Part shown: positions 5,965 to 23,373 of the stretch, one piece after another
Layout: every line of letters begins with the position of its first letter
Numbering within the stretch: the stretch's first letter is position 1
IMG/VR virus record: IMGVR_UViG_3300024344_003081
DNA from: a virus
Lineage: Duplodnaviria; Caudoviricetes
Direction: 5' to 3' (one strand)
Length of the DNA: 64,000 nucleotides
Notes under the pieces: model-generated
Database searches by the model: none
What the model was told of the DNA's origin: nothing
What the model saw: the letters and a program-made list of their open reading frames with translations, nothing else
Program-made: the position numbers and the translations under genes

Positions 5965-6176
5965 TAATAGGTGATCCTAAAAAGTGCCCAATAGCACTTT
6001 CTGATGGATGTACAACTTGTAGTAAAATTTATAGTGGGGAAGATAGAGTGGAATTTGGTAATTGTCAAGAAGAACCTATTAAAATTAATTTTCATATGAA
6101 ATTTAAAGATCAATTAACTGAGCAACAAAGAAAACAATCTGGTAGAGATCCTTGGAAGGAATTACAATATGCCTGA
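5961..6176 (+). CDS. Small Cys-containing hypothetical protein (71 aa)
   Basis: Overlaps both neighbours; CPIALSDGCTTC motif. Confidence 0.65.
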   Translation: MIIGDPKKCPIALSDGCTTCSKIYSGEDRVEFGNCQEEPIKINFHMKFKDQLTEQQRKQSGRDPWKELQYA

Positions 6177-7395: not shown

Positions 7396-8060
7396 TATTT
7401 GATAAACCTGTAATAGATCCAAGAGTTAACCAAGGAGATGGACCACCAAAATATATTCCTGGTCAATTATTAGATAAAAAAGATTTAACAGTATATCAAC
7501 ATAAAGATACTACAATGGTTGTTTTAGATTATGATCAAAAAATTAATGTTGATGTGATGAATGAAGTTTTATATAGAACTATAGAGGGTGGAGCAATAAG
7601 AAAAAATGAATATGTAATTATAGTATCTAAAAAACAATTAAATAGAAAAATGTTTAGAAATGTAATAGATAAAATTCTATATTCACAAGATTTGAGATAT
7701 GATTATATGTCAAGTCTTCCAAAGAATTTACATAATAATGTAATAGATTTTAAAGATACTAAAGAATTAACGGGGGACTTAAATAAATCTACATACGAAG
7801 AAGAAGGCACTTTAAGTTGGGAATTACTTAGTCCGGTTGAACAAGGTTGTATAATATTTGAACAATTTTATGGTGATGATCCTGAAATTGTCGCAGGTAA
7901 AAATATAAGTGCTGAAGAATGGATATCTGCAAATAGAAATGTTTGGCATCTTGTAGATAGAGCAACAGATGAACAGAGAAAAGAGTGGTTAGAAAAGTTC
8001 TATAGATATAAAAAAGTGTATGATACATTTCCAACCGCACCACTTATTACGGAGCCATAA
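7392..8060 (+). CDS. Hypothetical protein (222 aa)
   Basis: Coupled ORF within the rSAM cluster. Confidence 0.7.
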   Translation: MIFDKPVIDPRVNQGDGPPKYIPGQLLDKKDLTVYQHKDTTMVVLDYDQKINVDVMNEVLYRTIEGGAIRKNEYVIIVSKKQLNRKMFRNVIDKILYSQDLRYDYMSSLPKNLHNNVIDFKDTKELTGDLNKSTYEEEGTLSWELLSPVEQGCIIFEQFYGDDPEIVAGKNISAEEWISANRNVWHLVDRATDEQRKEWLEKFYRYKKVYDTFPTAPLITEP

Positions 8061-8323
8061 TGAATAAAGATGAACGAAAAGAAATTTCAGAAAAGGCGGC
8101 CCGTGAAGGTGATATCAATGCAATAATAAAACAATTGCAAGATGAAGAAACTCCTGATAAAGTTCAAGCTAGAGATAAAAATTTACTCAAGAGAAGTTTC
8201 GAATATGAATCCGGAGAAGAGGGAATAGGTCATGAGCCATTATTTAAATATAATTTAGATTTTGCAGGATTAATGAGAAATATGTCCTACATAATTAAAA
8301 AATATAAGGAAAGAAAAAAATGA
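8060..8323 (+). CDS. Hypothetical protein (87 aa)
   Basis: TAATG coupling upstream, ATGA coupling downstream. Confidence 0.65.
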   Translation: MNKDERKEISEKAAREGDINAIIKQLQDEETPDKVQARDKNLLKRSFEYESGEEGIGHEPLFKYNLDFAGLMRNMSYIIKKYKERKK

Positions 8324-9696
8324 GATCCCGTTCAGATAAAATTTGTCCAGAATTTAGTAAATTGGATGATATTATTGATTATGAAAGAGGATTGAATGAT
8401 GGAGAGAGTATATGCAAACCATATACAACCCATAAGATTCATGAATTGGCAACTATTCAGGAACAGAGTCTTGCAAAAAATCCAGATTCAAAAATTAGAG
8501 AAATTTCGAATAGAAAATTAAATGAAGTAGTAAAAGAAAATTTTGAATCTGTTTCAACAGATAGACATCGACATCGTATTGAAGATTTAAAACAGGGAAA
8601 AATAAAAACTGAAGAAGCAACTGTTAGTGAAATTTATGATAGACATTTTACACATGGAGAAAATGAAAAAACAAGAGTTGCACATGGTGGTGCAATTCAT
8701 TTATTTTATATGACAAGTCAATGTAATTTAGATTGTAATTATTGCTATCAGCATTTAGAAGGAAGACCTAAACATTTACCCGAACCTCCTTTAATAGCCA
8801 ATCTTATCGATAATATTATGGAATCAGATAGACCTGATGAACAAACTCTTTATTGTATTTTTGGTGGTGAACCTTTGATGGAATGGGAGAATTGTAGATT
8901 TTTAATGGATTATGCTTATAAATCAAAACATAATTGTCATTTTAATATAACATCAAATGGTATATTATTAAGTAAGCCTGCTTTTTTTAAAAAAGTGACC
9001 ACATATTTAGAAGAGCATCCTGAAATAAAACAAAGAGTTTCTTTTGATATTAGTTTTGATGGAGTTGGAAGTCAAGATAGAGTTTATTATTCTGGGAAAG
9101 ATTCAACTCTTGATGTATTAAAATGTTTTGGTAATATTATGGAATACAATAAAGACAAATCCCGTGAAGATCAAATACGGTGGAGATGTAGATATACTAT
9201 TCATAGATCAAATGTAATGTGTTTTGCAAAAGATATGTTTCATATAGCAACGACATATGGACCAGATAGAGTTGTAACATCTTTAGATAATAAGTGTGCA
9301 GAAGGCGAAACGCCAGAAGATGAAGCAAAAATTAAATGGTTATTAAAAGAACAAATTGATTGGCTTAGAGAAAAATGGAGAAGAAATTTAATAAATTATC
9401 CTGTGTGTAGTTTATTTTGTGATATGTGTAATTCATGTGGAGAAAAGAAAGATCATAGATTTTATTATAGTCAACAAGGTCTTGCTAGAATTCAAAATGT
9501 GAATGTAAGAGTTGGAGAAGAGTTCTTTGATTTTCCAGATGCAGATCCCGAAATAGAAAGAGAATTACCTAAAGCTGGGTTACCAAAAACAATGTTTGAT
9601 CGTTTAGGTATAGTTGATACCTTTGGTCAAGGATCTGGAACAGAACATTTACAAGAAACAAAATTTGCGGAAGACGGAAAAAGTCTTTCTTGTTAG
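8320..9696 (+). CDS. Radical SAM protein #3 with N-terminal extension and short C-terminal Cys cluster
   Basis: CNLDCNYC, IFGGEP, TSNG, ISFDG; C-terminal CSLFCDMCNSC rather than a full SPASM pattern. Confidence 0.88.
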   Translation: MRSRSDKICPEFSKLDDIIDYERGLNDGESICKPYTTHKIHELATIQEQSLAKNPDSKIREISNRKLNEVVKENFESVSTDRHRHRIEDLKQGKIKTEEATVSEIYDRHFTHGENEKTRVAHGGAIHLFYMTSQCNLDCNYCYQHLEGRPKHLPEPPLIANLIDNIMESDRPDEQTLYCIFGGEPLMEWENCRFLMDYAYKSKHNCHFNITSNGILLSKPAFFKKVTTYLEEHPEIKQRVSFDISFDGVGSQDRVYYSGKDSTLDVLKCFGNIMEYNKDKSREDQIRWRCRYTIHRSNVMCFAKDMFHIATTYGPDRVVTSLDNKCAEGETPEDEAKIKWLLKEQIDWLREKWRRNLINYPVCSLFCDMCNSCGEKKDHRFYYSQQGLARIQNVNVRVGEEFFDFPDADPEIERELPKAGLPKTMFDRLGIVDTFGQGSGTEHLQETKFAEDGKSLSC

Positions 9697-9704
9697 GAGA
9701 TATT

Positions 9705-10436
9705 ATGGCTGAAGAACATGAATTGATTAAAAAACACGCTAATGAAGCAATACAAGCATTAGTTCCATTATTAGATAATGAAAAAACACGCCATATAGGT
9801 CATGTATTATTAAAAGCAATTGACTTGGGTTTAGGTATGTTGTCAGCAGATGCTAAAGGAGAGTCTAGTGGAGCGAACAATCAAATAAGAGTAAGTGGGG
9901 CTTCTCCTCCAGGAACCGTTCCTCAAAATTTTCAGAAAGATATAGAGCAAGAAAATAAGGTACAGGGATTAGTAGATGAAACATTAAAGGAATTAGAAAT
10001 GATGGATAATCATGAATCTAATCCTGTAACTACAGACAAAGATGGTAATGAAATAGAATATGTAAAAGGAATGCTTTGTAATTGTCAATTTGCTTCTGAA
10101 TTTCACAAATACTGTGATAATCAATGTAAAGAGACTTTGATTAAAGCAGAAGGAAATCCAAAAGAATATATTAAATTTATTGATAAAGAAAGAAAAGAAC
10201 AAGATACTAAATCTCTTGATGAGGCAATGGATGAGGTTACAGGCTTTATTGATACAGAATTGGGTATTGGAGTTTCTCCTAGACCAAAACCACAACAATC
10301 ACAGCAACAAGCTCCTCAAAATGATGTACAGCAAGAAACTCCTTTAAATGAAGAAAACAAGCAATTTGCGTTAGATCCTAGTCAACCTGTTATTATGCCT
10401 GGTGAACCAACTGGACTTGAAAATGACAGTAGTTAA
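9705..10436 (+). CDS. Hypothetical acidic protein with CNC...C..QC motif
   Basis: SD AGGAGA precedes ATG 9705 (track start 9690 is TTG). Confidence 0.7.
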   Translation: MAEEHELIKKHANEAIQALVPLLDNEKTRHIGHVLLKAIDLGLGMLSADAKGESSGANNQIRVSGASPPGTVPQNFQKDIEQENKVQGLVDETLKELEMMDNHESNPVTTDKDGNEIEYVKGMLCNCQFASEFHKYCDNQCKETLIKAEGNPKEYIKFIDKERKEQDTKSLDEAMDEVTGFIDTELGIGVSPRPKPQQSQQQAPQNDVQQETPLNEENKQFALDPSQPVIMPGEPTGLENDSS

Positions 10437-10677
10437 TTTATCCTCTATTAATATTATTGCAGTTCTTACTAAGATAAAAAAATTAGAAGAAAGTAATATT
10501 TCAAATAAATATTCTCGTATAGTTGATTTATTAGATTCTACAAAATCAAGATTTGATGTTTCTCTTGATTCATATAAAAATGTGGAATTATTAGCAGATC
10601 ATATAGAATTTTCAACAACGGGCTTAATTCTTTGGCAAAGAATGAGAGATAAATATAACGACTTAGCGGACAAATGA
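10423..10677 (+). CDS. Hypothetical protein (~84 aa)
   Basis: ATG 10423; ATGA overlap with the next gene. Confidence 0.55.
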   Translation: MTVVNLSSINIIAVLTKIKKLEESNISNKYSRIVDLLDSTKSRFDVSLDSYKNVELLADHIEFSTTGLILWQRMRDKYNDLADK

Positions 10678-11657
10678 TGGCATTCAATGATATACCTGGA
10701 AATTCAACATGGAAAACTGTAAAATGTGATAACGAAATTGTTTCACTTGCTAATGGAAGTGAGCCTGATAAATTTGATCAAATTTTAGATTTATTAAAAT
10801 TAAATAAACAATATTATTTAGAAAATGGAACTACAGAAAACGAATGGCTTGATCGAGTTTCGGGCTTTGCTTGTCAGAGACCATATGTATCAACAACGAA
10901 TGAAGAACGATCTAAAGGAGAAGAATTGGGATTTTATGAAGATTTAGGTAGCCCTGATTGGGAGGCTTCTCAGAATGATTCCAAGATTACTGACCTTGCT
11001 AATGGAAGCGAATCCGATAAATATGATCAAATTTTAAATATATTAAAAACAAATAAAGAATATTATTTAAAAACTGCAGTAACCGAAGATCAATGGACTG
11101 ATAGAGTTTTATATTTTGCATATCAAAGAGGATCTGATGTTAGTGGTGATCCATTTATTGTAGATGATGCACCAGTATTACCTCTTGACTATATGGATTC
11201 TAAAGATATATCATGGTTTAATAGTGATATGAGATGGGAAATCGCAATGAAAATTTTAATTAATGCAATTGATGAAAAAGGAAAAACTTGGTATACAACT
11301 GAAACTGCTCAAACTCCTGATGGTAATATAGCTGGACCAAATGATTCTCAAATTTCTAGTTTAAGTTGGTTGCCATCAAATTGTATATCATTACATAATA
11401 AACTTATAAGTTCTACTTATTCTAAGTTCATATATATTATCAAGTTAAGTAATGTTCATTTGAGATATTCTGAACCATCAAAAATATTTGATGAAATTGA
11501 TACCGAAAACACTACTGCCATTTCAAATCTCAATACATCTCAATTGACAGATTTATTAGCATATGTTAGAGAAGCATATGTAAGTCGTCCAGACGATAAA
11601 ACAAATGAAAATTTTGAAGCCGCATGTGAAATGCTAGAGTTTGATATGGCACAATAA
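10674..11657 (+). CDS. Hypothetical protein with internal tandem duplication of a ~50-aa domain
   Basis: LANGSEPDKFDQILDLLKLNKQYYLE...EWLDRV and LANGSESDKYDQILNILKTNKEYYLK...QWTDRV. Confidence 0.72.
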   Translation: MMAFNDIPGNSTWKTVKCDNEIVSLANGSEPDKFDQILDLLKLNKQYYLENGTTENEWLDRVSGFACQRPYVSTTNEERSKGEELGFYEDLGSPDWEASQNDSKITDLANGSESDKYDQILNILKTNKEYYLKTAVTEDQWTDRVLYFAYQRGSDVSGDPFIVDDAPVLPLDYMDSKDISWFNSDMRWEIAMKILINAIDEKGKTWYTTETAQTPDGNIAGPNDSQISSLSWLPSNCISLHNKLISSTYSKFIYIIKLSNVHLRYSEPSKIFDEIDTENTTAISNLNTSQLTDLLAYVREAYVSRPDDKTNENFEAACEMLEFDMAQ

Positions 11658-11673
11658 TATATTGAGGAATATA

Positions 11674-12057
11674 ATGGTTACTAGAGAAGAAATTGAACAA
11701 AAGTGTAAAGACGCTTTTGATGAAGCAGGCATGGGCCTTTCCTTCCCAGAAATTACACCAGAAAAAAATATAGCACAGGATCTTGATATTGATTCAATTC
11801 ATATTTTAGAGACTATGATTCTTATTGAAGATGAATTTGATATTATGTTAGATGCTGAAGAATTTCAAAAAGCAACTACTGTAAGGGATCTTTATGATTT
11901 AGTTGAAGTAAAAATAAAACAAGGAGCTAAAATTAAAGAACTTGAAAAAGAAGCAGGCGATGATGAAAAAGCTAGAAACAGATTATTAGAACAACTAAAG
12001 AAAGATAAAGAAGCAGGTACAGGGGTTTATGAAATGAGCCAATATGAGAAAAAGTAA
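11674..12057 (+). CDS. acpP: Acyl carrier protein with charged C-terminal extension
   Basis: DLDIDSIHILETMILIEDEFDI matches the ACP helix II motif with the phosphopantetheine Ser in DS; SD GAGGA before ATG 11674. Confidence 0.88.
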   Translation: MVTREEIEQKCKDAFDEAGMGLSFPEITPEKNIAQDLDIDSIHILETMILIEDEFDIMLDAEEFQKATTVRDLYDLVEVKIKQGAKIKELEKEAGDDEKARNRLLEQLKKDKEAGTGVYEMSQYEKK

Positions 12058-13168
12058 AATATCAGGACTTGGTGACTATGGTGTATTTATAGATGATGTA
12101 TCATTAGCAGAAATGTCTGATAATGATTGGATGCAATTAGGAAAAGAACATCTTACAGATTTAGTTACAATTATTAGAAATGTAGATATTCAACCATCTG
12201 AATTTGAACGTAAGATGTATTTATGGGGCGCCCCATATGTTATAGATGGATATCGTATTAAGAAAAAATATGAAAAAAAATTAGGAATATCTAATTTATA
12301 TACATTATTCAAACGTGATCTTTTAGAAGAAGAAGATCGCCGACATGCAGAAAATTTAACGTGGTATATTGCGGCAGGGGATAATTTTACAGAAGAAGAG
12401 GTTCCTGCTGATTCTCATTTAATTCGTATAACTGGTATGAAAGAGAATGGGAGAAGTATGGGAATGTTTGCTGAAGGAGAATTGGGCTGGCATTCTAATG
12501 AAGCGGGTTCGCTTTGCTTTACTCCTGGTGTTGCACTCATGGGCATAAAAGGAATGGTGGGGTCTTCAACAGGATTTGTTTGTTCTGCAACTTGGTACGA
12601 AAAGCAAAGAGATTCTTTTAAAAGAGAATTAGATGATATGACTGTTATTTTTAAATATCAAAATTATGAAACTGCTCCTGAATTAAATAAAGATCAAGAT
12701 GATTCATTTCGTTGGAATCAAACGTTTGAACCGATTGAACTTCCACTGGTTATTACAACCCCTGGAGGAATAAAAGGTCTGCATTATTCTCCTGGTACAG
12801 TAGAGAGAACTAAATTTTTAGATGATTTAGACAAAGAATTATTTGTAGATGAATATACTTATCATCACAAGTATGAAAGAAATAATGATATATTACTTTT
12901 TGATAATTGTATTACTTTGCATAATAGACAAGGATCCCCCATTGAACGAGTGGCTTATCGAGAACCATGTGATTATGCTCAGTTAATTCCTGATGGATAT
13001 AATTATTATTCCCAAGAGCCTTATAAAACACAATTTGAAGAAATGAGAAAAGACATACAGGAAACTCTTGGTGTTAAATCTATAGCTGAACAGAATATGG
13101 TTTTTAAAAAATATATTCAACCAAAATTCCCCAAAAGAGAATGGAAAAACAATGATCTAGTGAGGTAA
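12044..13168 (+). CDS. TauD/TfdA-family Fe(II)/2-oxoglutarate dioxygenase-like protein
   Basis: GELGWHSNE (WHxD-like) and ILLFDNCITLHNR (W/FDNxxxxHxR) motifs. Confidence 0.78.
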   Translation: MRKSKISGLGDYGVFIDDVSLAEMSDNDWMQLGKEHLTDLVTIIRNVDIQPSEFERKMYLWGAPYVIDGYRIKKKYEKKLGISNLYTLFKRDLLEEEDRRHAENLTWYIAAGDNFTEEEVPADSHLIRITGMKENGRSMGMFAEGELGWHSNEAGSLCFTPGVALMGIKGMVGSSTGFVCSATWYEKQRDSFKRELDDMTVIFKYQNYETAPELNKDQDDSFRWNQTFEPIELPLVITTPGGIKGLHYSPGTVERTKFLDDLDKELFVDEYTYHHKYERNNDILLFDNCITLHNRQGSPIERVAYREPCDYAQLIPDGYNYYSQEPYKTQFEEMRKDIQETLGVKSIAEQNMVFKKYIQPKFPKREWKNNDLVR

Positions 13169-13169
13169 A

Positions 13170-13787
13170 ATGAAAAAAATGATGATAACAGGTGTGAGTT
13201 CTGGTTTAGGAAAAGCACTTTTTGAATATTATGATGGAAAATATATTCAAAAATATAAAGATGTAATAGAAGTTGAAGGTCACAGTAGAAGATATAATCA
13301 ACATGATATTCAAGACATTAAAGATTGGTTTGATCCTGAAGCAGATATTTTTATCAATAATGCATATAGTGATCTGAGATGGTGGACTCAAACGAATGCA
13401 TTATTATATTCTTTTTCAGTTTGGGCAGATAAACCCGATAAACATATTGTGTCTATAAGTTCAATTGCACAGGAAAAAGATACTGATGGATGGCCTATTG
13501 GTCATAGTAGATATTCAGTAGGAAAAATTTCTCTTGATAAAATGAATTTAGACTGTCATGAAAAAGTAGCAAAAAAACATGGATGTAAAGTTTCTAATTT
13601 AAGACTTGGTTGGGTAGAAACACCTAGAACAACAAGAATAAGTACTGTAGTAAGTCGTTTATATGATGTTGATCCTGTTAAGCAAACAACTGGAACAATG
13701 TTGAGTACAGATGAATGTATAGATGCTATAGACTTTATGTTAAATCATAGTGGAAGAGTAAGAGAAATGACATTGGAGGCAAAATGA
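13170..13787 (+). CDS. Short-chain dehydrogenase/reductase (SDR)
   Basis: ITGVSSGLG Rossmann motif, INNA, YSVGK (YxxxK). Confidence 0.88.
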   Translation: MKKMMITGVSSGLGKALFEYYDGKYIQKYKDVIEVEGHSRRYNQHDIQDIKDWFDPEADIFINNAYSDLRWWTQTNALLYSFSVWADKPDKHIVSISSIAQEKDTDGWPIGHSRYSVGKISLDKMNLDCHEKVAKKHGCKVSNLRLGWVETPRTTRISTVVSRLYDVDPVKQTTGTMLSTDECIDAIDFMLNHSGRVREMTLEAK

Positions 13788-14812
13788 GCAAGGTGTTACA
13801 AATAGCAACTAGACATCCTGAAAATGAACATCATAATAAAGATTTTGCCGCAGAATTAAAATTATGGTGGGAAGAAAAAGGATATTCGGGTAGAGTTTTT
13901 GATAGATATCTTCCATTAACGGGTGTTGAAACTCGATATGCTTGTTATAATCGAGAGGAGATGAGAGAAAAATCTCAAACGTTTACTCAAAAAAATAAAA
14001 CATTTAATGAAGTTGCTATAAAATTATCATTAGAATGTGTAAAGGAATTGGAATTTAATCCACAAGATGTTTGTATGTTAACATCAACTACTATGACAGG
14101 TGTTGGTATTCCTACGATTCCCCATACAATATTAAAAGAATTTAATTTTCCAGAATCAATGATTAAAATACCCATGTTTGGTCTAGCATGTAATGGAGGC
14201 ACTCATATTTTAGGAATAGCAAATGAATATTTAAAAGGTAATCCAGACAAGTTAGTTATAGCAATGACTAACGATTTATGTTCAATGAATTTGTGTCCTG
14301 AACATGCTACATTAACAACTGTTTTTGGATCTGTAATATTTGGTGATGGAATTAGTGCTATTTTAATTGCAGGAGATAATTATAATGATGCACCAGGATG
14401 GAAATTACATAAACATGTGTCATATGTTTTACCAGATACAGAAGATTATATTACTCTTCAAGGATTAAGTGAAGGATTATTATATCATGTAGAATCAACT
14501 AAATTGCAAGAAATACCAAAAGCATCTGCGGCATTTAATGATAAAATTAAAGAATTTATTGAAGGTCATACTATTAATAATTGGATATGTCATCCAGGAG
14601 GAAAAATTGTTTTAGAAAATACTGTAAAGGGGCTTAATTTACCTGAAGGTGCTTTGGATTCATCTTTTGAATTATTTCGAAATTTTGGAAATATGTCTGC
14701 AACTTCAGTAATAAAAACTTTACAGCATGATTTTGATAAAGATGGCAAAACAGTTATGATTTCTTATGGGCCAGGTTTTCAGGTTGATGTTATATTATTA
14801 GAAAAAATATGA
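13784..14812 (+). CDS. Type III polyketide synthase (chalcone/alkylresorcinol synthase family)
   Basis: Cys-His-Asn triad contexts GLACNGG, WICHPGGK.VL, FGNMSATSV; also FGDG and SYGPGF. Confidence 0.92.
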   Translation: MSKVLQIATRHPENEHHNKDFAAELKLWWEEKGYSGRVFDRYLPLTGVETRYACYNREEMREKSQTFTQKNKTFNEVAIKLSLECVKELEFNPQDVCMLTSTTMTGVGIPTIPHTILKEFNFPESMIKIPMFGLACNGGTHILGIANEYLKGNPDKLVIAMTNDLCSMNLCPEHATLTTVFGSVIFGDGISAILIAGDNYNDAPGWKLHKHVSYVLPDTEDYITLQGLSEGLLYHVESTKLQEIPKASAAFNDKIKEFIEGHTINNWICHPGGKIVLENTVKGLNLPEGALDSSFELFRNFGNMSATSVIKTLQHDFDKDGKTVMISYGPGFQVDVILLEKI

Positions 14813-15237
14813 TTTGGGGAAAAGATAAACACGATATTCGTAATAGAATTTTGTCGATGACAATAGAAAATGGCTTGGGTATAGATTTACAAACAATAGA
14901 ACCCATTCAAAAAATATATGATAAATGGGGTGATAAATTTGTTAATAAAATATTAACAGATATAGAAAAGAAAAATGCACCAAATCCCATAACTGCAAAA
15001 TATTTAACAAAATGTTGGTGTGTTAAAGAAGCATTTTCAAAAGCAATTGCATCTCCATATTTGAGACTCGATGTTAGTTATACACATTTAAAAGCTAGAG
15101 GAGCAAGATTTCCTGTTGTTCATTGTGTTATGGAACCCAAAGATTGGAATTTGAAACGACAAGATATTAGACTTTCTTTATCTGATACAAAAGATTATGT
15201 GGTCGCAATAGTTATTACAGGAGTTAATCCTTTGTGA
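14809..15237 (+). CDS. acpS: Holo-ACP synthase (AcpS-type 4'-phosphopantetheinyl transferase)
   Basis: GLGIDL, W.VKEAFSKA, LSLSDTKDYVVAIV motifs; ~140 aa. Confidence 0.85.
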   Translation: MIWGKDKHDIRNRILSMTIENGLGIDLQTIEPIQKIYDKWGDKFVNKILTDIEKKNAPNPITAKYLTKCWCVKEAFSKAIASPYLRLDVSYTHLKARGARFPVVHCVMEPKDWNLKRQDIRLSLSDTKDYVVAIVITGVNPL

Positions 15238-15959
15238 TAAAAACCTTAGACTATACAATCCCTTCTGAATGGAATAATAAAAATATTATTTCTAGTTTTA
15301 TTGATTCGGGATTTTTAGTAATTAATCATCCCTTCATAGATATGAAAGAAGGTTTACTTTCTTTTAAAGAAAAACTTAAAATACAATTAAACGAATTAGA
15401 AGAAACTGAAGAGGGGTATAGAAAAATTATATTAAAAAATTGTGATAATATTAAACAAAGATTTTTAAAAGTGGGATGTGAAATTTTATATGTTATTGAA
15501 GAATTTTTAAATGTTCCTCCAAATTCTATTGCAATGAAACATGCTGATTCTGATAATGCTTTGAGATTGGTTAAATATTATAAAGATCAGAAAGGATCAA
15601 TAAGAGTAGGAGAACATTGTGATTTTGGTACTTTAACACTTGTTCATGTTTGTGATCCTGTAGAAGAATATGAAATATTTTATGATGATAAATGGAGAAC
15701 AATAAATCATCCTAGTGATGATTTTTTGATTGTGAATATAGGTGATTTTATGCAGATTTGGTCAGATAATAAATTAAAATCTACTCCGCATAGAATAACG
15801 AATAAAACAAAAAAAGAAAGACACAGTATGATTATGTTTATGGATGCTGGTAATCATACTATTAAAGGAATTGATCATGCTACTTGGAATAAAAAAAGAA
15901 TACAAATGGCTCATACAGGAGTAACATATTATCATGACAAAGGTATCGTACAAATATAA
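15234..15959 (+). CDS. Fe(II)/2OG dioxygenase, isopenicillin-N-synthase-like
   Basis: LRLVKY, GEHCDFGTLTL (HxD), VNIGDFMQIWS...STPHR, RHS (RxS). Confidence 0.9.
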   Translation: MIKTLDYTIPSEWNNKNIISSFIDSGFLVINHPFIDMKEGLLSFKEKLKIQLNELEETEEGYRKIILKNCDNIKQRFLKVGCEILYVIEEFLNVPPNSIAMKHADSDNALRLVKYYKDQKGSIRVGEHCDFGTLTLVHVCDPVEEYEIFYDDKWRTINHPSDDFLIVNIGDFMQIWSDNKLKSTPHRITNKTKKERHSMIMFMDAGNHTIKGIDHATWNKKRIQMAHTGVTYYHDKGIVQI

Positions 15960-16692
15960 AGTATGGTTTTTAATATTAATGAATCATGTTCTAATGATAA
16001 TAGGAATTTATTATGCTATAACAGAATCATCATATTATTTGTTTATTGTACTGTTTATTGGACTTTTATTGAGTAAGTTGGGTGGAGAAATAGGAACTCA
16101 TAGATATCTTTCTCACCGATCTTTTAAAACTGGACCCATAAGAAATTTTATATTGCAAATTATGGGATTAATAAATTGTAATGGTTCACCTATGACTTGG
16201 GCTATATTGCATAGATATCATCATATGAATGCAGATAAGCCAGAAGAACCCCATTCTCCAAATATAATACCATGGTGGAAGTGCTGGTTGACTTTGTGGA
16301 ATCCTATATCTCCTAATCCAAAAGAGTATATGGATTTATTGAAAGATCCATTAGTTAAAAACATACACAAATATTATTTTTATATGATAATATTGATGTT
16401 TGGAATATTATATTTGTTAGACTGGAGATTACTTGTATTTTTAGTTTGTATTCCTTCTGTAATAACCTTTCATGGATCAACTTTATTAATAAATACTATT
16501 TCTCATAAATGGGGATATCGTAATTTTGATACTGATGATAATAGTAGAAATAATACGTGGATTAATTTTTTAATATGGGGAGGGGGCTTACATAATAATC
16601 ATCACGCTTATCCTGAAAGATATAATGAAAAAGTAACAGATAACGAAAGGGATCCTTGTGGCTGGATTATTGAAAAATTTTTTAAAATATAG
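15934..16692 (+). CDS. Membrane fatty-acid desaturase (Delta9-like) paralogue 1
   Basis: His boxes HRYLSH, HRYHH, HNNHH; hydrophobic segments. Confidence 0.92.
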   Translation: MTKVSYKYKVWFLILMNHVLMIIGIYYAITESSYYLFIVLFIGLLLSKLGGEIGTHRYLSHRSFKTGPIRNFILQIMGLINCNGSPMTWAILHRYHHMNADKPEEPHSPNIIPWWKCWLTLWNPISPNPKEYMDLLKDPLVKNIHKYYFYMIILMFGILYLLDWRLLVFLVCIPSVITFHGSTLLINTISHKWGYRNFDTDDNSRNNTWINFLIWGGGLHNNHHAYPERYNEKVTDNERDPCGWIIEKFFKI

Positions 16693-17452
16693 TAGTACTT
16701 GGCATACTCATTTAGGATTTCAAATATTATTTCATATTGTAGCGGCATTAGGAATTGTCTATAGTTCTTGGCATTGGTTATGGTTAAGTCTTATTGGAGT
16801 AATATTATTTCGACATATAGGGGGTGAAATAGGCGCCCATAGATATTATGCTCATAGAAGTTTTGAAGCAAAACCTTGGGCTCAAAAATTAATGATTATA
16901 TGTGGACTTTTTTTATATCAAGGATCGCCATATTCTTTTATTCCAATTCATAGATTACATCATCAAAAATCAGATACAATTGATGATCCTCATTCTCCCC
17001 ATTTTTTAAATTTTGTAAATGTGTATTTTCCTAGTGCGAACCAGTATTATCGTGAACCCGTGGATAAATCATATTTTGCAGATTTAATTAAAGATCCCGT
17101 TTTACAATTTTTACATAGAAATTATTTAATTATAGTAACTATACCATTGATTATAACAGCATTAATAGATTGGAGAATACCTGTTTTTCTATTTGCTATT
17201 CCAGTTGTAATTACATTTCATTCTGCGGGATTGGGAAATACTATAGGTCATTTATATGGATATAGAAATTTTGAAACAACTGATAAAAGTCAAAATTCTA
17301 CATGGGTGAACATATTAACTTTAGGATCAGGATTACATAATAATCATCATGCATATCCTGAAAGATATAATTATAAAATGACAAATAAATGGTATGAAAG
17401 AGATGATTTAAATGTTTTTTTAATCGAAAAATTATTAATGGAGAAAAAATGA
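16658..17452 (+). CDS. Membrane fatty-acid desaturase paralogue 2
   Basis: HRYYAH, HRLHH, HNNHH; exact start uncertain (GTG 16658 or TTG 16670). Confidence 0.92.
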   Translation: MAGLLKNFLKYSSTWHTHLGFQILFHIVAALGIVYSSWHWLWLSLIGVILFRHIGGEIGAHRYYAHRSFEAKPWAQKLMIICGLFLYQGSPYSFIPIHRLHHQKSDTIDDPHSPHFLNFVNVYFPSANQYYREPVDKSYFADLIKDPVLQFLHRNYLIIVTIPLIITALIDWRIPVFLFAIPVVITFHSAGLGNTIGHLYGYRNFETTDKSQNSTWVNILTLGSGLHNNHHAYPERYNYKMTNKWYERDDLNVFLIEKLLMEKK

Positions 17453-18219
17453 AAATCATTTCAAAATATAATAATACCTGGATGGCATATTTTGGATTTC
17501 AAATTTTATTTCATATATTAACTGTTGTTGGATTGTTATATTCATCATGGCATTGGCTGTGGTTGTCTTTAGTGGGCATTATTTTTTTCAGACATATTGG
17601 TGTAGAAATTGGCGCCCATCGATATTTTGCACATAAAAGTTTTAAAGCAAAACCTTGGGCTAAAAAATTAATGGCCATTTGTGGACTTTTTGCATATGGA
17701 GGAACACACTATGCTTGGATTCCTTTTCATAGACTACATCATCAAAAATCAGACACTAAATTGGATCCCCATTCACCACATCACATGAGTTTCATAGATG
17801 TTTATTTTACTAACTGGCGAGTTGAAGTGTTAGATGTTAAATTGTATCAAGATTTAATAGAAGATAAATTTTTACAATTTTTACATAGAAATTATTTAAT
17901 TATAGTAACTACACCATTAATTTTATTTGCATTGATAGATTGGAGAATATCTGTTTTTCTATTTGCTATTCCAAGTGCATTTGCACTTCATTCTGGGGGG
18001 CTGGTAAATTCTATAGGGCATTTATATGGATATAGAAATTTTGATGATACAAACGATAAAAGTCGAAATTCTACATGGGTGAATATACTAACTTTAGGAG
18101 AAGGTCTGCAGAATAATCATCATGCACATCCTGAAAGATATAATTTTAAAATGTCTAATAGATGGTATGAGACAGATTTTTTGAACGTTTTTCTAATAGA
18201 AAAGTTTTTAAAGGCGTGA
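17449..18219 (+). CDS. Membrane fatty-acid desaturase paralogue 3
   Basis: HRYFAH, HRLHH, QNNHH. Confidence 0.9.
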   Translation: MKIISKYNNTWMAYFGFQILFHILTVVGLLYSSWHWLWLSLVGIIFFRHIGVEIGAHRYFAHKSFKAKPWAKKLMAICGLFAYGGTHYAWIPFHRLHHQKSDTKLDPHSPHHMSFIDVYFTNWRVEVLDVKLYQDLIEDKFLQFLHRNYLIIVTTPLILFALIDWRISVFLFAIPSAFALHSGGLVNSIGHLYGYRNFDDTNDKSRNSTWVNILTLGEGLQNNHHAHPERYNFKMSNRWYETDFLNVFLIEKFLKA

Positions 18220-19082
18220 TAATGTTTAAATATGAGATGACACGAAATGCAATTATTATTGGGATGATGATTCATTTATCTTTTCATGTTTTATTAGTAT
18301 ATGGAATAATAACTTTTTCTTTACATTGGTTGTGGTTAACATTAATAGGAACCATTTTAATTCGACATATAGGAACTGAAATAGGCGCTCACAGGTATTA
18401 TACTCATCAAAGTTTTAAAGCAAATCCGTGGGCACAGTGGCTTATGTCTATTTTATTTGTATGGAATTATGGAGGTAGTATGTTAGCATGGTGTCCTGGA
18501 CACAGTTATCATCATAGATTTTCTGATAGTAAACATGATATACAATCTCCACATTATATAAAAAAATTTAAAGATTTTGTTAGAGTTGTTTTTCCTGCAG
18601 TATTCGCATATGAAAAATTATATAACGATGAAATTGATAAAATGAGAATGAAAAGATACATGGAATGGTTTCATGAAAAGAGGGGTTTTATGGAATTAAT
18701 GAAGAATAAACCAGCGAGATTTACTCATAATTATTATTGGTTGATTGTATCTCTTCCAATTATAATTTTACCAATAATTGATATTCGTTTATTAATCTTT
18801 CTTATAGCAATACCATGTGTAATTAATTTTTGGTCTTTGGCTCTACTAAATTTTTTTGGACATATTTCTACTATTGGAAGTTATAAAAATTTCGAAACTG
18901 ATGAGTGGGGTAACAAGGAACGTTCAGTTAATACTCTATGGTTAAATATATTTACTGGGGGAATGGGACTACAAAATAATCACCATCATAATTCAAGAGC
19001 CTATAATTTTAAAATGAATGATAAATGGCATGAAACAGATTTTTTGAATGTATTTTTAATAGAAAAATTTTTAAAGGTTTAA
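18216..19082 (+). CDS. Membrane fatty-acid desaturase paralogue 4
   Basis: HRYYTH, HSYHH, QNNHH. Confidence 0.9.
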   Translation: MIMFKYEMTRNAIIIGMMIHLSFHVLLVYGIITFSLHWLWLTLIGTILIRHIGTEIGAHRYYTHQSFKANPWAQWLMSILFVWNYGGSMLAWCPGHSYHHRFSDSKHDIQSPHYIKKFKDFVRVVFPAVFAYEKLYNDEIDKMRMKRYMEWFHEKRGFMELMKNKPARFTHNYYWLIVSLPIIILPIIDIRLLIFLIAIPCVINFWSLALLNFFGHISTIGSYKNFETDEWGNKERSVNTLWLNIFTGGMGLQNNHHHNSRAYNFKMNDKWHETDFLNVFLIEKFLKV

Positions 19083-19083
19083 C

Positions 19084-19923
19084 ATGTTCAAATTTACAGC
19101 AAATAGGTTTGCAGTTATTATGATTTCTATTATTCATACGTTATTTCATATATTAACTGTATATGGATTAATAACTTTTTCTTTACATTGGTTATGGTTA
19201 TCTTTTATTGGTGTTATATTATTACGACATATCGGTACAGAAATAGGAAATCATCGATATTTTTGTCATAGGAGTTTTGAAGCAAAACCTTGGGCAGAAT
19301 GGCTTATGATGATTGGATATGCATTTTCGTATGGAGGAAGTAATATAGCATATGCTATAGGTCATAGATGGCATCATGCTACATCTGATACTGAAAAAGA
19401 TCCAATTTCTCCTCATAACATTAAGAATGTTAAAGATGTTTTTAGAATTATAACTCAAACTTTAGGAGAACTTCAACAGGAAGAACGTAAAGATTGGAAT
19501 ATTTTTAGAAAAAGTGAAAATAAATTTTGTAAAAAATTATTTAAAAATAAAGTAGCAAGATTCAATCATGAATATTATTGGTTAATAGCACTTTCTCCCA
19601 TTGTAATTTTATCAATAATCGATATTCGTTTGTTAATATTTTTTATAGCATTACCTTGTGTTATAACTTTTTGGTCTGGAATGTTAGCACATTTTTTAGG
19701 ACATGTAATGTTATTTGGTTGTTATAGAAATTATGAAACTACAGTTGATGATCTATCGGTAAATAATCCATGGTTAAATATAATAACAGGAGGATTAGGA
19801 ACATTACATAATAATCATCATGCACATCCTGAAAGATATAATTATAAAATGTCTAATAGATGGTATGAGACAGATTTTCCCAATGTGTTTTTAATAGAAA
19901 AGTTTTTAAAACATGATAGATAA
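19084..19923 (+). CDS. Membrane fatty-acid desaturase paralogue 5
   Basis: HRYFCH, HRWHH, HNNHH. Confidence 0.92.
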   Translation: MFKFTANRFAVIMISIIHTLFHILTVYGLITFSLHWLWLSFIGVILLRHIGTEIGNHRYFCHRSFEAKPWAEWLMMIGYAFSYGGSNIAYAIGHRWHHATSDTEKDPISPHNIKNVKDVFRIITQTLGELQQEERKDWNIFRKSENKFCKKLFKNKVARFNHEYYWLIALSPIVILSIIDIRLLIFFIALPCVITFWSGMLAHFLGHVMLFGCYRNYETTVDDLSVNNPWLNIITGGLGTLHNNHHAHPERYNYKMSNRWYETDFPNVFLIEKFLKHDR

Positions 19924-20707
19924 CCTTAATAAATTATTTGTTAAAGATTTTCAAATTAGTATATTACAATATGTGTGGATTTATACCTTTCCTATCATAT
20001 CTGTATTGGGAATAATATATTCGTCATGGCATTGGTTGTTTTTAACATTAGTGGGTATAATTTTGTTTAAAGATATTGGAGGCGAAATAGGAGTCCATAG
20101 ATACTGGACACATAATTCATTTAAAGCGAAACCTTGGGTACCAAAATTATTTTCAATTTGTACAATTTTATGCTATGCTGGTAGTCCTCTTACTTGGTCA
20201 TATGTTCATAGACATCATCATGAGCATTCTGATACTGAAAAGGATGTACACTCTCCCCACCACAGCAAATGGTATCATATCTGGAGAGGATATTGGGATT
20301 TTTCAAAAATAGAAAAGTTTGATCCTAGATTCGTAGCAGATTTGTTGAAAGATGAATCAATAAAATTTGCACATCGATATCATTTATTAATTCAAATATG
20401 CGTAATCATAATAACTGTGTCTATAGATTGGAGAATATTTGTATTTTTATTTGCTCTTCCTAGTGCAATAACATTTTGGTTTGGATCTATAGCTGTTAAT
20501 ATGATGAGTCATTTGTGGGGATATCGTAATTTTGAAACACCTGATAATTCAAAAAATAATATACTTGCTTGTATTCTTGTTTCTTCTGGAGGATTACAAA
20601 ACAATCATCATTATAATCCTTCTTCATATAATTTTAAAATGTCAGATAGATGGTATGAACAAGATATGAAAAATGTGTTTCTTATTGAAAGATTTTTTAA
20701 AGCATGA
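19913..20707 (+). CDS. Membrane fatty-acid desaturase paralogue 6
   Basis: HRYWTH, HRHHH, QNNHH. Confidence 0.9.
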   Translation: MIDNLNKLFVKDFQISILQYVWIYTFPIISVLGIIYSSWHWLFLTLVGIILFKDIGGEIGVHRYWTHNSFKAKPWVPKLFSICTILCYAGSPLTWSYVHRHHHEHSDTEKDVHSPHHSKWYHIWRGYWDFSKIEKFDPRFVADLLKDESIKFAHRYHLLIQICVIIITVSIDWRIFVFLFALPSAITFWFGSIAVNMMSHLWGYRNFETPDNSKNNILACILVSSGGLQNNHHYNPSSYNFKMSDRWYEQDMKNVFLIERFFKA

Positions 20708-21468
20708 TTAATTATTATATTAAATCTAAGCGAACTCCCTATTTTTTCTTAATTAATTTAATTGCTCATTTAGCAATTATACCCGCAATTCTTTATGGCG
20801 AATGGTGGATGTGGATATTAAGTTTGATATGGTGGCAGTGGATAGGATGTACAGCATATACTACTGGGTATCATAGGTATTATACTCATAAAAGTTTTAA
20901 AGCACCGCTTTGGTATGATTATTATTTTAATTTTTTTTCTTTATTTGGTAATCCAGGACCAGTTCTTATATGGAGCGGAACACATAAATTACACCACAAA
21001 TATAGTGATACGGAATTAGATCCACATAGTCCTAAACATAAAGGATTTTGGAATGTGTGGACAAGTTTTTGGGGAATGGGAGTGTTTACAATAGATCCTC
21101 CTACAAGAGAAGATTTAAAAGATTGGTTAGAAGAAACAAAAGATCCTATTGCTAAATGGTTTTATGATAATTATCTTTCTTTAACAGTTATTATTATGAT
21201 TGTATTGTTATTCATGGGTCCTTGGTTTTTTATATTTGGTTTTTGTATTCCTACATGTTTAATACTTCATGGTTCGGGTATTATTAATGCATTTACTCAT
21301 AAGAATGGAAAACCAGAGAATAAAAATTTAGTGGCATTGATAACCGCTGGAGAAGGATGGCATTTGAATCATCATGAAGATCCATCTAATTATACGACAA
21401 GAAAAGAGTCGTATAAATGGTGGCAAGTTGACTTAAATGGTATATGGATCAATTTAATTAAAATATAG
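20704..21468 (+). CDS. Membrane fatty-acid desaturase paralogue 7 (closest to canonical Delta9)
   Basis: GYHRYYTH, HKLHH, GEGWHLNHH. Confidence 0.93.
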   Translation: MINYYIKSKRTPYFFLINLIAHLAIIPAILYGEWWMWILSLIWWQWIGCTAYTTGYHRYYTHKSFKAPLWYDYYFNFFSLFGNPGPVLIWSGTHKLHHKYSDTELDPHSPKHKGFWNVWTSFWGMGVFTIDPPTREDLKDWLEETKDPIAKWFYDNYLSLTVIIMIVLLFMGPWFFIFGFCIPTCLILHGSGIINAFTHKNGKPENKNLVALITAGEGWHLNHHEDPSNYTTRKESYKWWQVDLNGIWINLIKI

Positions 21469-21486
21469 GCTCGATATATATTAACA

Positions 21487-21517
21487 CCAGAGAATGGAAA
21501 CGAAAGTTCCGCTTTGG
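21487..21517 (+). other. Stem-loop with GAAA tetraloop upstream of the tRNA-like element
   Basis: CCAGAG/CTTTGG outer helix enclosing GGAAAC-GAAA-GTTCC. Confidence 0.5.
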
Positions 21518-21519
21518 AC

Positions 21520-21592
21520 AGGGGTGTAGTTTAATTAAAACGGCCAACAGGGTGTTGGGAAGTTGTGAGTGTAAATCTCGCCACCCCGACCA
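21520..21592 (+). tRNA. Non-canonical tRNA-Pro(GGG)-like RNA with encoded CCA
   Basis: Cloverleaf: acceptor AGGGGTG/CACCCCG plus A-CCA, D stem GTTT/AAAC, anticodon arm CCAA-CAGGGTG-TTGG, T stem GTGAG/CTCGC; lacks D-loop GG, U33 and TTC. Confidence 0.6.
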
Positions 21593-21612
21593 AAATTAAA
21601 AAAAAGTATGTT

Positions 21613-22419
21613 ATGATTACAATTAATACATGGAAAAATAATTATATTATTGCACATGATCCTCATTCAAAAATTGAAATAGATTCTTTGAATAAATTAT
21701 TTGTTTCATTAGTAGATAAAATTGGGGGTAGTGATCAAGATTCTATTGAACGAGCAAAGAGAAAAGGTGAATATTTATTAATTGCTGGACATGCAAATAT
21801 AAAATATGAATTGTTAGCAAGAACTTTTCAAGATTTTCTTAAACAATTTGAAATTGGTTATGATTGGAGAGGTGAAAGTTCTGCTGATAATATATCATTA
21901 TTTAATGAATTAAATATTTTACCAACAGAAGATCCTTCTACAGGTGCTATAGGTGGAGGAGTGCCTGATGATAATCAGAATGAAATAGAATTAGGTATTC
22001 TTCCATTGGTTACTATTCTCAATACATTTGATGGAATTAGAACTTTTGGTTCATGTGAAGGACACTATGTTAAGTCTGATTTTCTCAATGCGTATATATC
22101 ATGGACTGCTTGCAATATAAATGGACTAAATTATTCTACATTTCTTTTAAAAAATGCAATTAATGGTGTTTGGGAAAAAAGAAAATTAAATGATGATGAG
22201 AATTTTAATATAAATCAAATAATTAATAGAATTACATTAAGTTTTAATACAGGATATTGGAAGCCTGCACGTTTAAGGACTGCTCCATTACCAGGTGAAA
22301 ATTTTTATCATTTTCGTTTTGATTATGAATTTAAATTTCGATCACTTGTTTTTAATATAATAAATGATATTGCTGAACATATTATAAATGAAAAATATGA
22401 ATTGTCAAAGGAGATATAA
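21613..22419 (+). CDS. Hypothetical protein with LV..LN...GIRTFGSCEGH motif (weakly TYW3-like)
   Basis: Track start (21565 GTG) lies inside the tRNA-like element, so ATG 21613 is preferred; family guess from a short motif only. Confidence 0.6.
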   Translation: MITINTWKNNYIIAHDPHSKIEIDSLNKLFVSLVDKIGGSDQDSIERAKRKGEYLLIAGHANIKYELLARTFQDFLKQFEIGYDWRGESSADNISLFNELNILPTEDPSTGAIGGGVPDDNQNEIELGILPLVTILNTFDGIRTFGSCEGHYVKSDFLNAYISWTACNINGLNYSTFLLKNAINGVWEKRKLNDDENFNINQIINRITLSFNTGYWKPARLRTAPLPGENFYHFRFDYEFKFRSLVFNIINDIAEHIINEKYELSKEI

Positions 22420-22682
22420 TGGCTAAAATTAGTGAAATATCTAATGAGTTGAAGAAAAAACTTGAAGACACAATGCAGGGTGGATATACAGGAGGCTGTC
22501 AAGAGTGGATTAATTTAATTGCAACTGCTGAACCGTCAGAAAATGAAAAAGAAGCAAATATGTTAAAAGCGTTAAATGATTTAACAACACAATTTACAGC
22601 AACGATGTCTGGAAATGCACCAGGTGATCTGACAATTTGGTATCAAGAATTAAACTTTGCTATGAATGAATATTTGACTTAA
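22419..22682 (+). CDS. Hypothetical protein (87 aa)
   Basis: SD GGAG; TAATG coupling. Confidence 0.7.
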   Translation: MAKISEISNELKKKLEDTMQGGYTGGCQEWINLIATAEPSENEKEANMLKALNDLTTQFTATMSGNAPGDLTIWYQELNFAMNEYLT

Positions 22683-22689
22683 TAATCTT

Positions 22690-23373
22690 ATGAAAATAGA
22701 ATTTTATGGTTCTAGTATAATAGGATCAAATACTTTTCAAATAGAAAAGCCTAAAGCATTCTATGATTTGATTCTTGATCATTTCAATGCTTCTTCATTA
22801 AATTATATGATAGCACAATGTTCAGAAGAAAGGATTCTTTACAATTTAAAAAAGACCAGTGAAATTGATATAGCAATAATCTTTCATTCAACTCCTCAAT
22901 TTATATATTTTCCAAATTTTACTAGAGATTTTATTTATATGAATGATGATAGAGTTGATGATTGGGATAATCGGCAACATTTTTTAGATTATGTTGATGC
23001 TTTTAAACAAAACAGAAAAGACATAGTTACAAATTTTAGTGTACCTACAGAACCTATTGATGCATCAATTATAAAAGATTTCATGAAATTACATTTTAAT
23101 AGAGATGTAAATAGAAATAGATTTCATGGAGCATTATCTTTAATTGATGAATATGTTTATTCAAAAAAAATACCAACAATACACGTTATAAATGATCATA
23201 TTCCTGGTTGGTTTACTTTTAAATCGGGCATTATAGATGAAGATATTTGTGAAATCGAAAAAGAATATAGTGTATCATTCAATAAATCTGTAAATGGAAT
23301 AAGTGAAGAGGGAAATAATCTTATTTTTAATAAATTAATTGGTTTGATCCAAAGTACAATACAAAGGACATAA
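22690..23373 (+). CDS. Hypothetical protein (227 aa)
   Basis: ORF; no confident motif. Confidence 0.65.
   Translation: MKIEFYGSSIIGSNTFQIEKPKAFYDLILDHFNASSLNYMIAQCSEERILYNLKKTSEIDIAIIFHSTPQFIYFPNFTRDFIYMNDDRVDDWDNRQHFLDYVDAFKQNRKDIVTNFSVPTEPIDASIIKDFMKLHFNRDVNRNRFHGALSLIDEYVYSKKIPTIHVINDHIPGWFTFKSGIIDEDICEIEKEYSVSFNKSVNGISEEGNNLIFNKLIGLIQSTIQRT

Follow-up and report, generated by a model that had tools for sequence, protein, structure and literature searches.

An old array of seven predicted SCD1-type desaturases, with two gene-conversion tracts, in the lipid cassette of a marine T4-like phage

The 64,000-nucleotide window analysed here, IMG/VR virus record IMGVR_UViG_3300024344_003081, contains seven tandem open reading frames (ORFs), D1 to D7, between positions 15934 and 21468. 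Their products are predicted to be membrane di-iron desaturases of the stearoyl-CoA desaturase 1 type (SCD1, acyl-CoA delta-9). The copies are very probably old: the duplications appear to predate several phage cassette lineages, copy number would have been set by cassette exchange and differential retention, and two internal gene conversions have been superimposed. The desaturases take up the 3' half of a mobile cassette for lipid biosynthesis, located in a variable island upstream of the head genes. With moderate confidence, we favour as the best overall explanation an old SCD1-type set carried in such a cassette, modified by conversions and acting jointly in polyunsaturation. Phage desaturases have so far been treated as single membrane-fluidity helper genes; here seven lie within a carrier-protein/polyketide cassette.

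An earlier note on this DNA had described a seven-copy desaturase array at 15934–21468, and the ORFs and their family matches bear this out. All seven are on the + strand, are 252–288 codons long and mostly overlap by 4–35 nucleotides (nt):

D1, 15934–16692, + strand: SCD-type desaturase, orthologous group A; PF00487, 1.6e-15
D2, 16658–17452, + strand: desaturase, group B; PF00487, 2.4e-16; GTG start; 35-nt overlap with D1
D3, 17449–18219, + strand: desaturase, group B; PF00487; nearest paralogue D2 (69% amino acid identity); box 3 starts with Gln
D4, 18216–19082, + strand: desaturase, group C; PF00487; central insert of about 25 residues
D5, 19084–19923, + strand: desaturase, group D; DesA-family match 1.2e-15, array profile 355 bits; 3' end converted
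D6, 19913–20707, + strand: desaturase; PF00487, 1.8e-15; no orthologue among the related cassettes sampled
D7, 20704–21468, + strand: most divergent desaturase, group E; DesA-family match 1e-14, array profile 293 bits

The PF00487 scores of D1, D2, D3, D4 and D6 are 56–61 bits, against a gathering cut-off of 29.7. D5 and D7 gave no Pfam PF00487 report and were placed in the family through the DesA-family model and the array profile. A profile built from all seven proteins reaches 9e-28 with human and mouse stearoyl-CoA desaturase. The AlphaFold (AF2) model of D4, the only protein folded, has a pLDDT of 92.5 and a pTM of 0.90 and shows the four-helix membrane fold of the SCD family. SCD1 structures were its sole significant Foldseek matches (4ZYO, 4YMK and 6WF2 at the top, probability 1.00, TM 0.55–0.65), with TM values of 0.64–0.65 for 4ZYO and 4YMK. 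The array also shares the metal-ligand motifs HRxxxH, HRxHH, NxxxH and HNxHH of this family, which includes the bacterial DesA/DesC-type delta-9 enzymes; across the seven proteins they read HRxxxH, H(R/S/K)xHH, NxxxH and (H/Q)xNHH, apart from a few substitutions. H56, R57, H61, H93, H96, H97, H191, H223 and H224 (D1 numbering) are invariant. The first His of box 3 is replaced by Gln in D3 (18097–18111), D4 (18960–18974) and D6 (20585–20599), and the Asn of NxxxH by His in D5 alone (near 19690). The first box-3 residue switches between His and Gln inside orthologous groups; a QxxHH box is reported for polyyne desaturases too (PMC9828172).

Besides these substitutions, the phage proteins differ from known SCD enzymes in being short (252–288 residues) and in occurring as seven divergent copies in one operon, and cellular homologues are about 33% identical at best. 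Array scores against the NCBIfam DesA equivalog NF049918, 25–104 bits over about 200 of the 385 profile positions, fall far short of its cut-off of 400 bits; by this measure the seven enzymes appear to be relatives, not equivalogs, of DesA. The central region, which the earlier note had described as diverging in length, does vary between His box 2 and the third membrane helix, with inserts of about 25 residues in D4 and about 17 in D5.

Pairwise amino acid identity among the paralogues ranges from 22 to 69% (D2/D3 69%, D4/D5 55%). Even in the most distant pairs the same codon is used at about 0.6 of identical residues, so synonymous sites are saturated; for most pairs they lie at the codon-bias floor. 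A maximum-likelihood tree of the array desaturases and their orthologues from related cassettes resolves the following groups:

Group A: D1 and three orthologues (L014_a248, L006_a260, L010_a245); support 100/98
Group B: D2, D3 and four orthologues; support 95/96
Group C: D4 and two orthologues (L014_c288, L017_c288); support 99/98
Group C+D: group C plus D5 and its orthologue L014_d272; support 100/99
Group E: D7 and two orthologues (L006_c257, L017_b261); support 97/99
No group: D6, alone in the tree

The gene order A-B-C-D in contig L014 matches that of the window array. Orthologous groups with a partly common order across lineages indicate that the duplications are older than the split of these cassettes. 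The only candidate for a lineage-specific pair is D2/D3. Among populations, all five variants within the array (5/5) are synonymous; the near-identical cassette variants hold too few differences for an estimate of dN/dS. Given this combination of low identity, saturated synonymous sites and groups common to other phages, the recent duplication claimed in the earlier note finds no support.

The window phage shares 64% identity in its major head protein with Pelagibacter phage HTVC008M, and matches to the respective phage families identify a gp43-type polymerase, a gp41-type helicase and a gp46-type nuclease. By these matches the window derives from a marine T4-like myophage. Upstream of the desaturases, the cassette comprises:

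11641–12057, + strand: acyl carrier protein (ACP); PP-binding 2.2e-7 and NCBIfam ACP models
12044–13168, + strand: TauD-type 2-oxoglutarate (2OG) dioxygenase; PF02668, 8.4e-11
13170–13787, + strand: SDR-like protein; weak, below-threshold SDR matches; kept in all related cassettes
13784–14812, + strand: type III polyketide synthase (PKS); Chal_sti_synt N and C domains
14809–15237, + strand: 4'-phosphopantetheinyl transferase (PPTase); PF01648, 4.2e-11
15234–15959, + strand: 2OG-Fe(II) oxygenase directly upstream of D1 and overlapping it; PF03171, 6.1e-17

The ACP, the PPTase and the seven desaturases all lie on the + strand and mostly overlap. The best solved relative of the PKS is the alkylpyrone synthase Pks11 of M. 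tuberculosis (2.4e-29; pks18, 6.7e-19), and its stretches GLACNGG, HPGG and GNMSA align with the catalytic Cys, His and Asn positions of Pks11.

Related phage contigs from Tara, JGI and ENA share the ACP, SDR-like protein, type III PKS, PPTase, 2OG oxygenase and desaturases. The 2OG-Fe(II) oxygenase occupies the same slot before the desaturases in L006, L010, L014 and L017, and the 35-nt D1/D2 overlap recurs with identical size in L010. In L006 and L010 the cassette is followed after a short distance by the head genes gp21, gp22 and gp23. Copy number in related phages, a check proposed in the earlier note, does vary (0, 2, 3, 5 or 7): L010 has two desaturases, L006 and L017 three each, and L014 five. 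The cassettes also differ in other genes. Right after the ACP, L014 carries a very divergent fifth desaturase (L014:5281–6000). L010 has a Rieske ring-hydroxylase alpha subunit where D3–D7 would be (L010:7292–8200), and the L006 and L017 cassettes include a FabA/ApeP-like dehydratase. In L021:1185–4317 we find an ORF with a PTS-HPr domain, a TauD and a Rieske protein.

Phages whose capsid genes are 98–99% identical have 0, 3 or 7 desaturases, in differing cassettes. In G001:C1:102600–119995 (L180/L181), gp23 is 99.3% identical and the flanks are 94% identical to the window, and the ACP, TauD, SDR, PKS, PPTase and desaturases are absent from 102600–119995 as far as it was examined (all but 108945–114100); nor does this nearest genome, G001, have a PF00487 match. 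What G001:C1 retains is limited to a 2OG oxygenase (43% identity) and a homologue of ORF 21565–22419 (49% identity). L025, in turn, has a 97.9% identical gp23, three desaturases and a PKS that is 72% identical. These two comparisons indicate that the cassette is an exchangeable island, and the pairing of near-identical capsids with unlike cassettes points to whole-cassette replacement rather than local amplification. Copy number among relatives would thus change mainly by cassette exchange and differential retention of old paralogues.

Multi-desaturase sets recur beyond these relatives. A megablast search of INPHARED phages with 13000–22500 gave no match, and the only tblastn matches were in Pelagibacter phage Mosig and an Acinetobacter phage, each with one desaturase copy. 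D3 alone as query returned no IMG/VR relatives. The group B alignment did return relatives, 366 in number; 77 of these loci were analysed and, together with related contigs, collapse to 62 phage types at 95% identity. Two or more desaturases (range 2–11) are present within the available flanks in 39 of the 62 types. The largest sets are those of L036 (11), L038 (9; collapses with L036 at 95%) and L029 (8). The closest same-genome paralogue has a median identity of 34% and a maximum of 68%, the latter being D2/D3 of the window; of 135 copies, only 6 are most closely related to another copy in their own genome. A ketosynthase of either type is found in 19 of 41 loci with at least three copies and in 0 of 29 single-copy loci; for the ACP the figures are 17 of 41 and 2 of 29. 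By contrast, 79 of the 80 best bacterial loci (28–34% identity) have a single desaturase. What is new here is that multi-desaturase sets recur in many sampled phage contigs and almost never in sampled bacterial loci.

Divergent sets of 7–11 desaturases are seen in L036:204–15546 (IMGVR_UViG_3300013006_001903), L038, L029, L034 and L054. In L036 the desaturases are accompanied by a PPTase (4719–5051), a FabF-type ketosynthase (7172–8332) and an ATP-grasp enzyme; an ACP lies inside the array (12944–13186), and a rubrerythrin follows at 15604–16065.

The contrast between many divergent phage copies and nearly always single bacterial genes suggests that phages build a specific, heavily unsaturated lipid. 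More tentatively, and with rather more doubt than belief, we propose that cassettes of 2–11 old SCD-type enzymes, often with ACP, PPTase and ketosynthase, constitute a widespread, largely phage-specific system whose products during infection would be polyunsaturated, conjugated or acetylenic lipids. If so, they would represent a phage-made class of lipid natural products absent from the literature searched, where we found no paper on phage desaturase arrays or on a phage type III PKS cassette.

How might seven desaturases work together? In the scheme we propose, seven non-redundant enzymes would each add a different unsaturation, or a related oxidation, to one long acyl chain. The chain would be carried by, or derived from, the phage ACP, and the type III PKS would use or produce it as an alkyl-pyrone or alkyl-resorcinol-type lipid. 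For this biochemical part, seven non-redundant steps on one ACP/PKS-linked chain, belief and doubt are nearly balanced, with doubt slightly ahead. Sequential or cooperative polyunsaturation is favoured because the PKS is nearest to Pks11, a long-chain enzyme, and because a polyyne desaturase triad offers a precedent. One enzyme per unsaturation step, as the earlier note had suggested, is plausible from the sequences; it is indirectly favoured by the retention of the ligand positions apart from the substitutions given above, by the persistence of orthologues and by the synonymous nature of all five variants.

In bacterial polyyne synthesis, a desaturase triad acts jointly on one ACP-bound fatty acid, and the cay/pgn pathways encode an acyl-AMP ligase, an ACP, the triad, a thioesterase and a redox partner (PMC9828172). 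The phage operon likewise has a dedicated ACP beside several membrane desaturases; it differs in having seven desaturases rather than three, and a type III PKS instead of a recognised acyl-AMP ligase or thioesterase. By analogy, the triad offers the best functional precedent for many desaturases serving one product. A second comparison is with the alkylpyrone and alkylresorcinol pathways (Pks11/Pks18; Azotobacter ArsB/C; sorghum DES2/DES3 with ARS), to which the phage PKS is linked by its similarity to Pks11 and its intact Cys-His-Asn triad. In sorgoleone synthesis, desaturases polyunsaturate the acyl starter of an alkylresorcinol synthase, and tailoring oxidations follow. The phage cassette departs from these pathways in including an ACP and a PPTase, and its desaturase set is unprecedented in scale. 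The evolutionary pattern resembles that of insect acyl-CoA desaturases, SCD-type enzymes that diversified through old duplications held as orthologous groups. The delta-5/6/9/10/11/14 acyl-CoA desaturases of moth pheromone synthesis evolved by birth and death, with old duplications kept as orthologous groups and many regio- and chemo-specificities. The insect genes, however, are eukaryotic, dispersed and outside any ACP/PKS context, whereas the phage genes form one operon.

Several points weigh against this scheme. SCD-type enzymes classically act on acyl-CoA or lipids, not on acyl-ACP. The cluster has no recognisable acyl-activating enzyme, thioesterase or redox partner: among the ORFs scanned from 6169 to 23373 there was neither a fatty acyl-AMP ligase nor a thioesterase domain, there is no ferredoxin- or rubredoxin-like small Cys protein near the array, and the scans gave no assignment for the neighbouring ORFs 9690–10436 and 10674–11657. 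In addition, different criteria were used to choose the loci from IMG/VR and those from bacteria, and neither set is phylogenetically independent.

The main rival to joint polyunsaturation is direct host-lipid remodelling, in which the desaturases act on host acyl-lipids or acyl-CoA during infection and the ACP and PKS genes form a separate module. Single phage desaturases have been described as auxiliary genes, and single phage acyl-CoA desaturases interpreted in this way (PMC7678222, PMC7029224). Both fold and motifs correspond to acyl-CoA and lipid desaturases, with no feature established as specific for acyl-ACP. But seven to eleven divergent copies are hard to explain by fluidity alone, and the cassette travels as a unit with tight gene overlaps. 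ACP, PPTase and ketosynthase co-occur with arrays, unlike with single copies. The single-copy desaturases of Pelagibacter phage Mosig and of the Lake Baikal Nitrospirota phages belong to the same family and also come from aquatic phages; they are lone genes about 31% identical to D3, interpreted as fluidity modulators, and not cassette arrays. We consider host-membrane remodelling unlikely, though it is the alternative that deserves most attention.

An accordion-like, still-active expansion had been proposed for the array in the earlier note, that is, recent local duplication for dosage or rapid diversification with homogenisation still going on. The genes are indeed tandem, co-oriented and alike in size, copy number varies among relatives, D2 and D3 are mutually nearest relatives, and there are two tracts of high identity. 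The identity range, the saturated synonymous sites and the orthologous groups common to several lineages all speak against it, as do the near-identical capsid genes found with differing cassettes. Even D2 and D3, across the 5' 426 nt, are no closer to each other than to the L010 orthologue (all 67–71%). Among the 62 phage types, moreover, no same-genome pair exceeds 68%, and few copies have their nearest relative in their own genome. Recent amplification is already largely refuted, and we give it very little weight.

The mosaic gene conversion claimed alongside that expansion did survive. Two tracts are supported by approximately unbiased (AU) tests, MaxChi and a codon null:

19810–19878, + strand: converted segment of D5 (recipient), which spans His box 3 and the beginning of the C-terminal helix; 68/69 nt identical to 18112–18180
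18112–18180, + strand: matching tract in D3 (probable donor), with AHPERYN and MSNRW motifs
17100–17452, + strand: 3' part of D2 homogenised with D3; begins with the 42-nt identical run; MaxChi break at 17105/17875
17870–18219, + strand: 3' part of D3 homogenised with D2; MaxChi and synonymous codon identity

Two identities reported in the earlier note were confirmed: 18112–18180 and 19810–19878 match at 68 of 69 nt, and the identity of 17101–17141 with 17871–17911 is part of an exact run of 42 nt (17100–17141 against 17870–17911). Codon bias in the array is extreme, with 85–97% A/T-ending codons for two-fold residues, and makes identical residues share codons about 60% of the time; for this reason significance was judged against a null in which the proteins were fixed and codons redrawn from the array's own strongly A/T-biased usage (1000 simulations). 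This null fits most of the remaining paralogue pairs. The D3/D5 match was attained in 0 of 1000 simulations, and for the 42-nt D2/D3 run the global P is 0.005. Once the 85.5% identity of the D2/D3 3' part is allowed for, however, the lone 42-nt run is unremarkable there (P about 0.06).

In D5, 20 consecutive informative sites (19822–19872) side with D3 and not with the orthologue L014_d272 (permutation P ≤ 5e-6), and the run is bounded by orthologue-like sites at 19809 and 19879. Segment trees conflict accordingly. Over the 5' 864 alignment columns D5 falls in the C+D clade at 100/100, and the AU test rejects D5 with group B (7e-9); over the 3' 144 columns it rejects D5 in C+D (0.003) and D5 with its orthologue (0.007). 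AHPERYN and MSNRW occur in D3 and D5 only. Motifs of the A[YH]PERYN type are typical of groups A and B, and the C/D/D6 clade otherwise has Y(N/D)PS(S/A)YN or xxxRAYN. Because the tract motifs fit groups A/B and not the C/D/D6 clade, D3 (or D2/D3) is the likely donor and D5 the recipient. Some caution is due: this polarity depends on one D5 orthologue together with D6, group C and P0012; the groups compared in the AU tests were named only once the data had been inspected, and triplet tests can mistake local rate shifts for recombination. The synonymous-site and orthologue controls argue against a local rate shift here. A triplet test among the window paralogues alone (104 triplets; uncorrected p about 0.002–0.003 for D5) was set aside, as it fails multiple-test correction and is open to a D4-specific rate shift; the orthologue-controlled tests were substituted for it.

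For D2 and D3, identity 3' of the break is 85.5%, against about 70% to the orthologue L010_b265 (MaxChi p ≤ 0.0005); in the 5' part it is 69.7%, against 70.7% to the same orthologue. The 3' part also has the higher synonymous codon identity, 0.82 against 0.64 in the 5' part (p = 0.013). Two non-reciprocal exchanges very probably took place: the older made D2 and D3 alike over their 3' 340 nt, and the younger overwrote about 70–100 nt at the 3' end of D5 with D3/D2 sequence, across His box 3 and the C-terminal helix. The similar N-terminal blocks of D4 and D5 that the earlier note had pointed to do exist (up to 85% identity in 60-nt windows), but exchange between them does not follow: there is no excess over the D4 orthologue (MaxChi p = 0.53), and the similarity is therefore attributed to common ancestry.

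Both tracts fall in the conserved catalytic C-terminal part, and the N-terminal helices and the variable central region remain paralogue-specific. Old paralogues homogenised in their catalytic C-terminal part only are a clean natural experiment: the N-terminal and central regions are the likely seat of specificity, and the distribution of the tracts fits such a placement.

Constraint at the nucleotide level, from an RNA or DNA element or from extreme codon bias on conserved residues, could in principle produce identical tracts in place of conversion. The strong A/T bias favours such an explanation, as does the position of the D3/D5 tract over the conserved His box 3, and tests on runs of identical codons at identical residues are by themselves modest (P = 0.006 for the D3/D5 pair; not significant for D2/D3). 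Yet the codon-resampling null is exceeded, the amino acid states of the tract are unique to D3 and D5 and unlike those of the D5 orthologue, and the segment trees are in conflict at the AU values given above. There was also no Rfam match in the sole stretch scanned, 21300–21800 downstream of the array, a scan outside which the tracts themselves lie. We regard constraint as a highly improbable source of the tracts.

The array itself was reproduced independently. Scaffold L020, from another sample, is 99.4–99.8% identical over 15406–21451, with a single N gap at 18096–18126, the edge of the D3/D5 repeat. Most of the array 31-mers are present in each of at least 20 public runs, drawn from at least six named studies; no RNA dataset is listed as containing the array. 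Four runs in three studies yield contigs that tile the array at ≥99% and even depth, bridging every gene junction and interrupted only at the two repeats, where an assembly at k = 31 must break. In the repeat graph, one path alone uses each piece once, and this path is the observed gene order. L020:1–1300 (window 15406–16700) shows several G>T and A>T differences, including two nonsense changes, in the 2OG oxygenase and in D1; these look like low-coverage errors because four other runs agree with the window. Mis-assembly by collapse or concatenation of strain variants, which the earlier note had named as a possible refutation and for which the metagenomic source, the short-read contig breaks at repeats and the L020 gap might be cited, is hardly credible for copies far too divergent to be strain variants (22–69% identity), with all junctions bridged at even depth in independent runs, a single consistent path and related cassettes in the same gene order.

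Around the array, promoter- and terminator-like sites occur at chance level, and there is no T4 late-promoter motif directly upstream. D7 is followed by a 140-nt, comparatively G+C-rich gap before the next gene (21469–21607), in which neither a tRNA nor an Rfam match was found; it contains a weak terminator-like hairpin on the minus strand at 21544–21558. At the start of the window, positions 3–2555 hold a highly repetitive collagen-like tail-fibre ORF, which matches many sites in G001:C1:90000–98900 at 66–88%.

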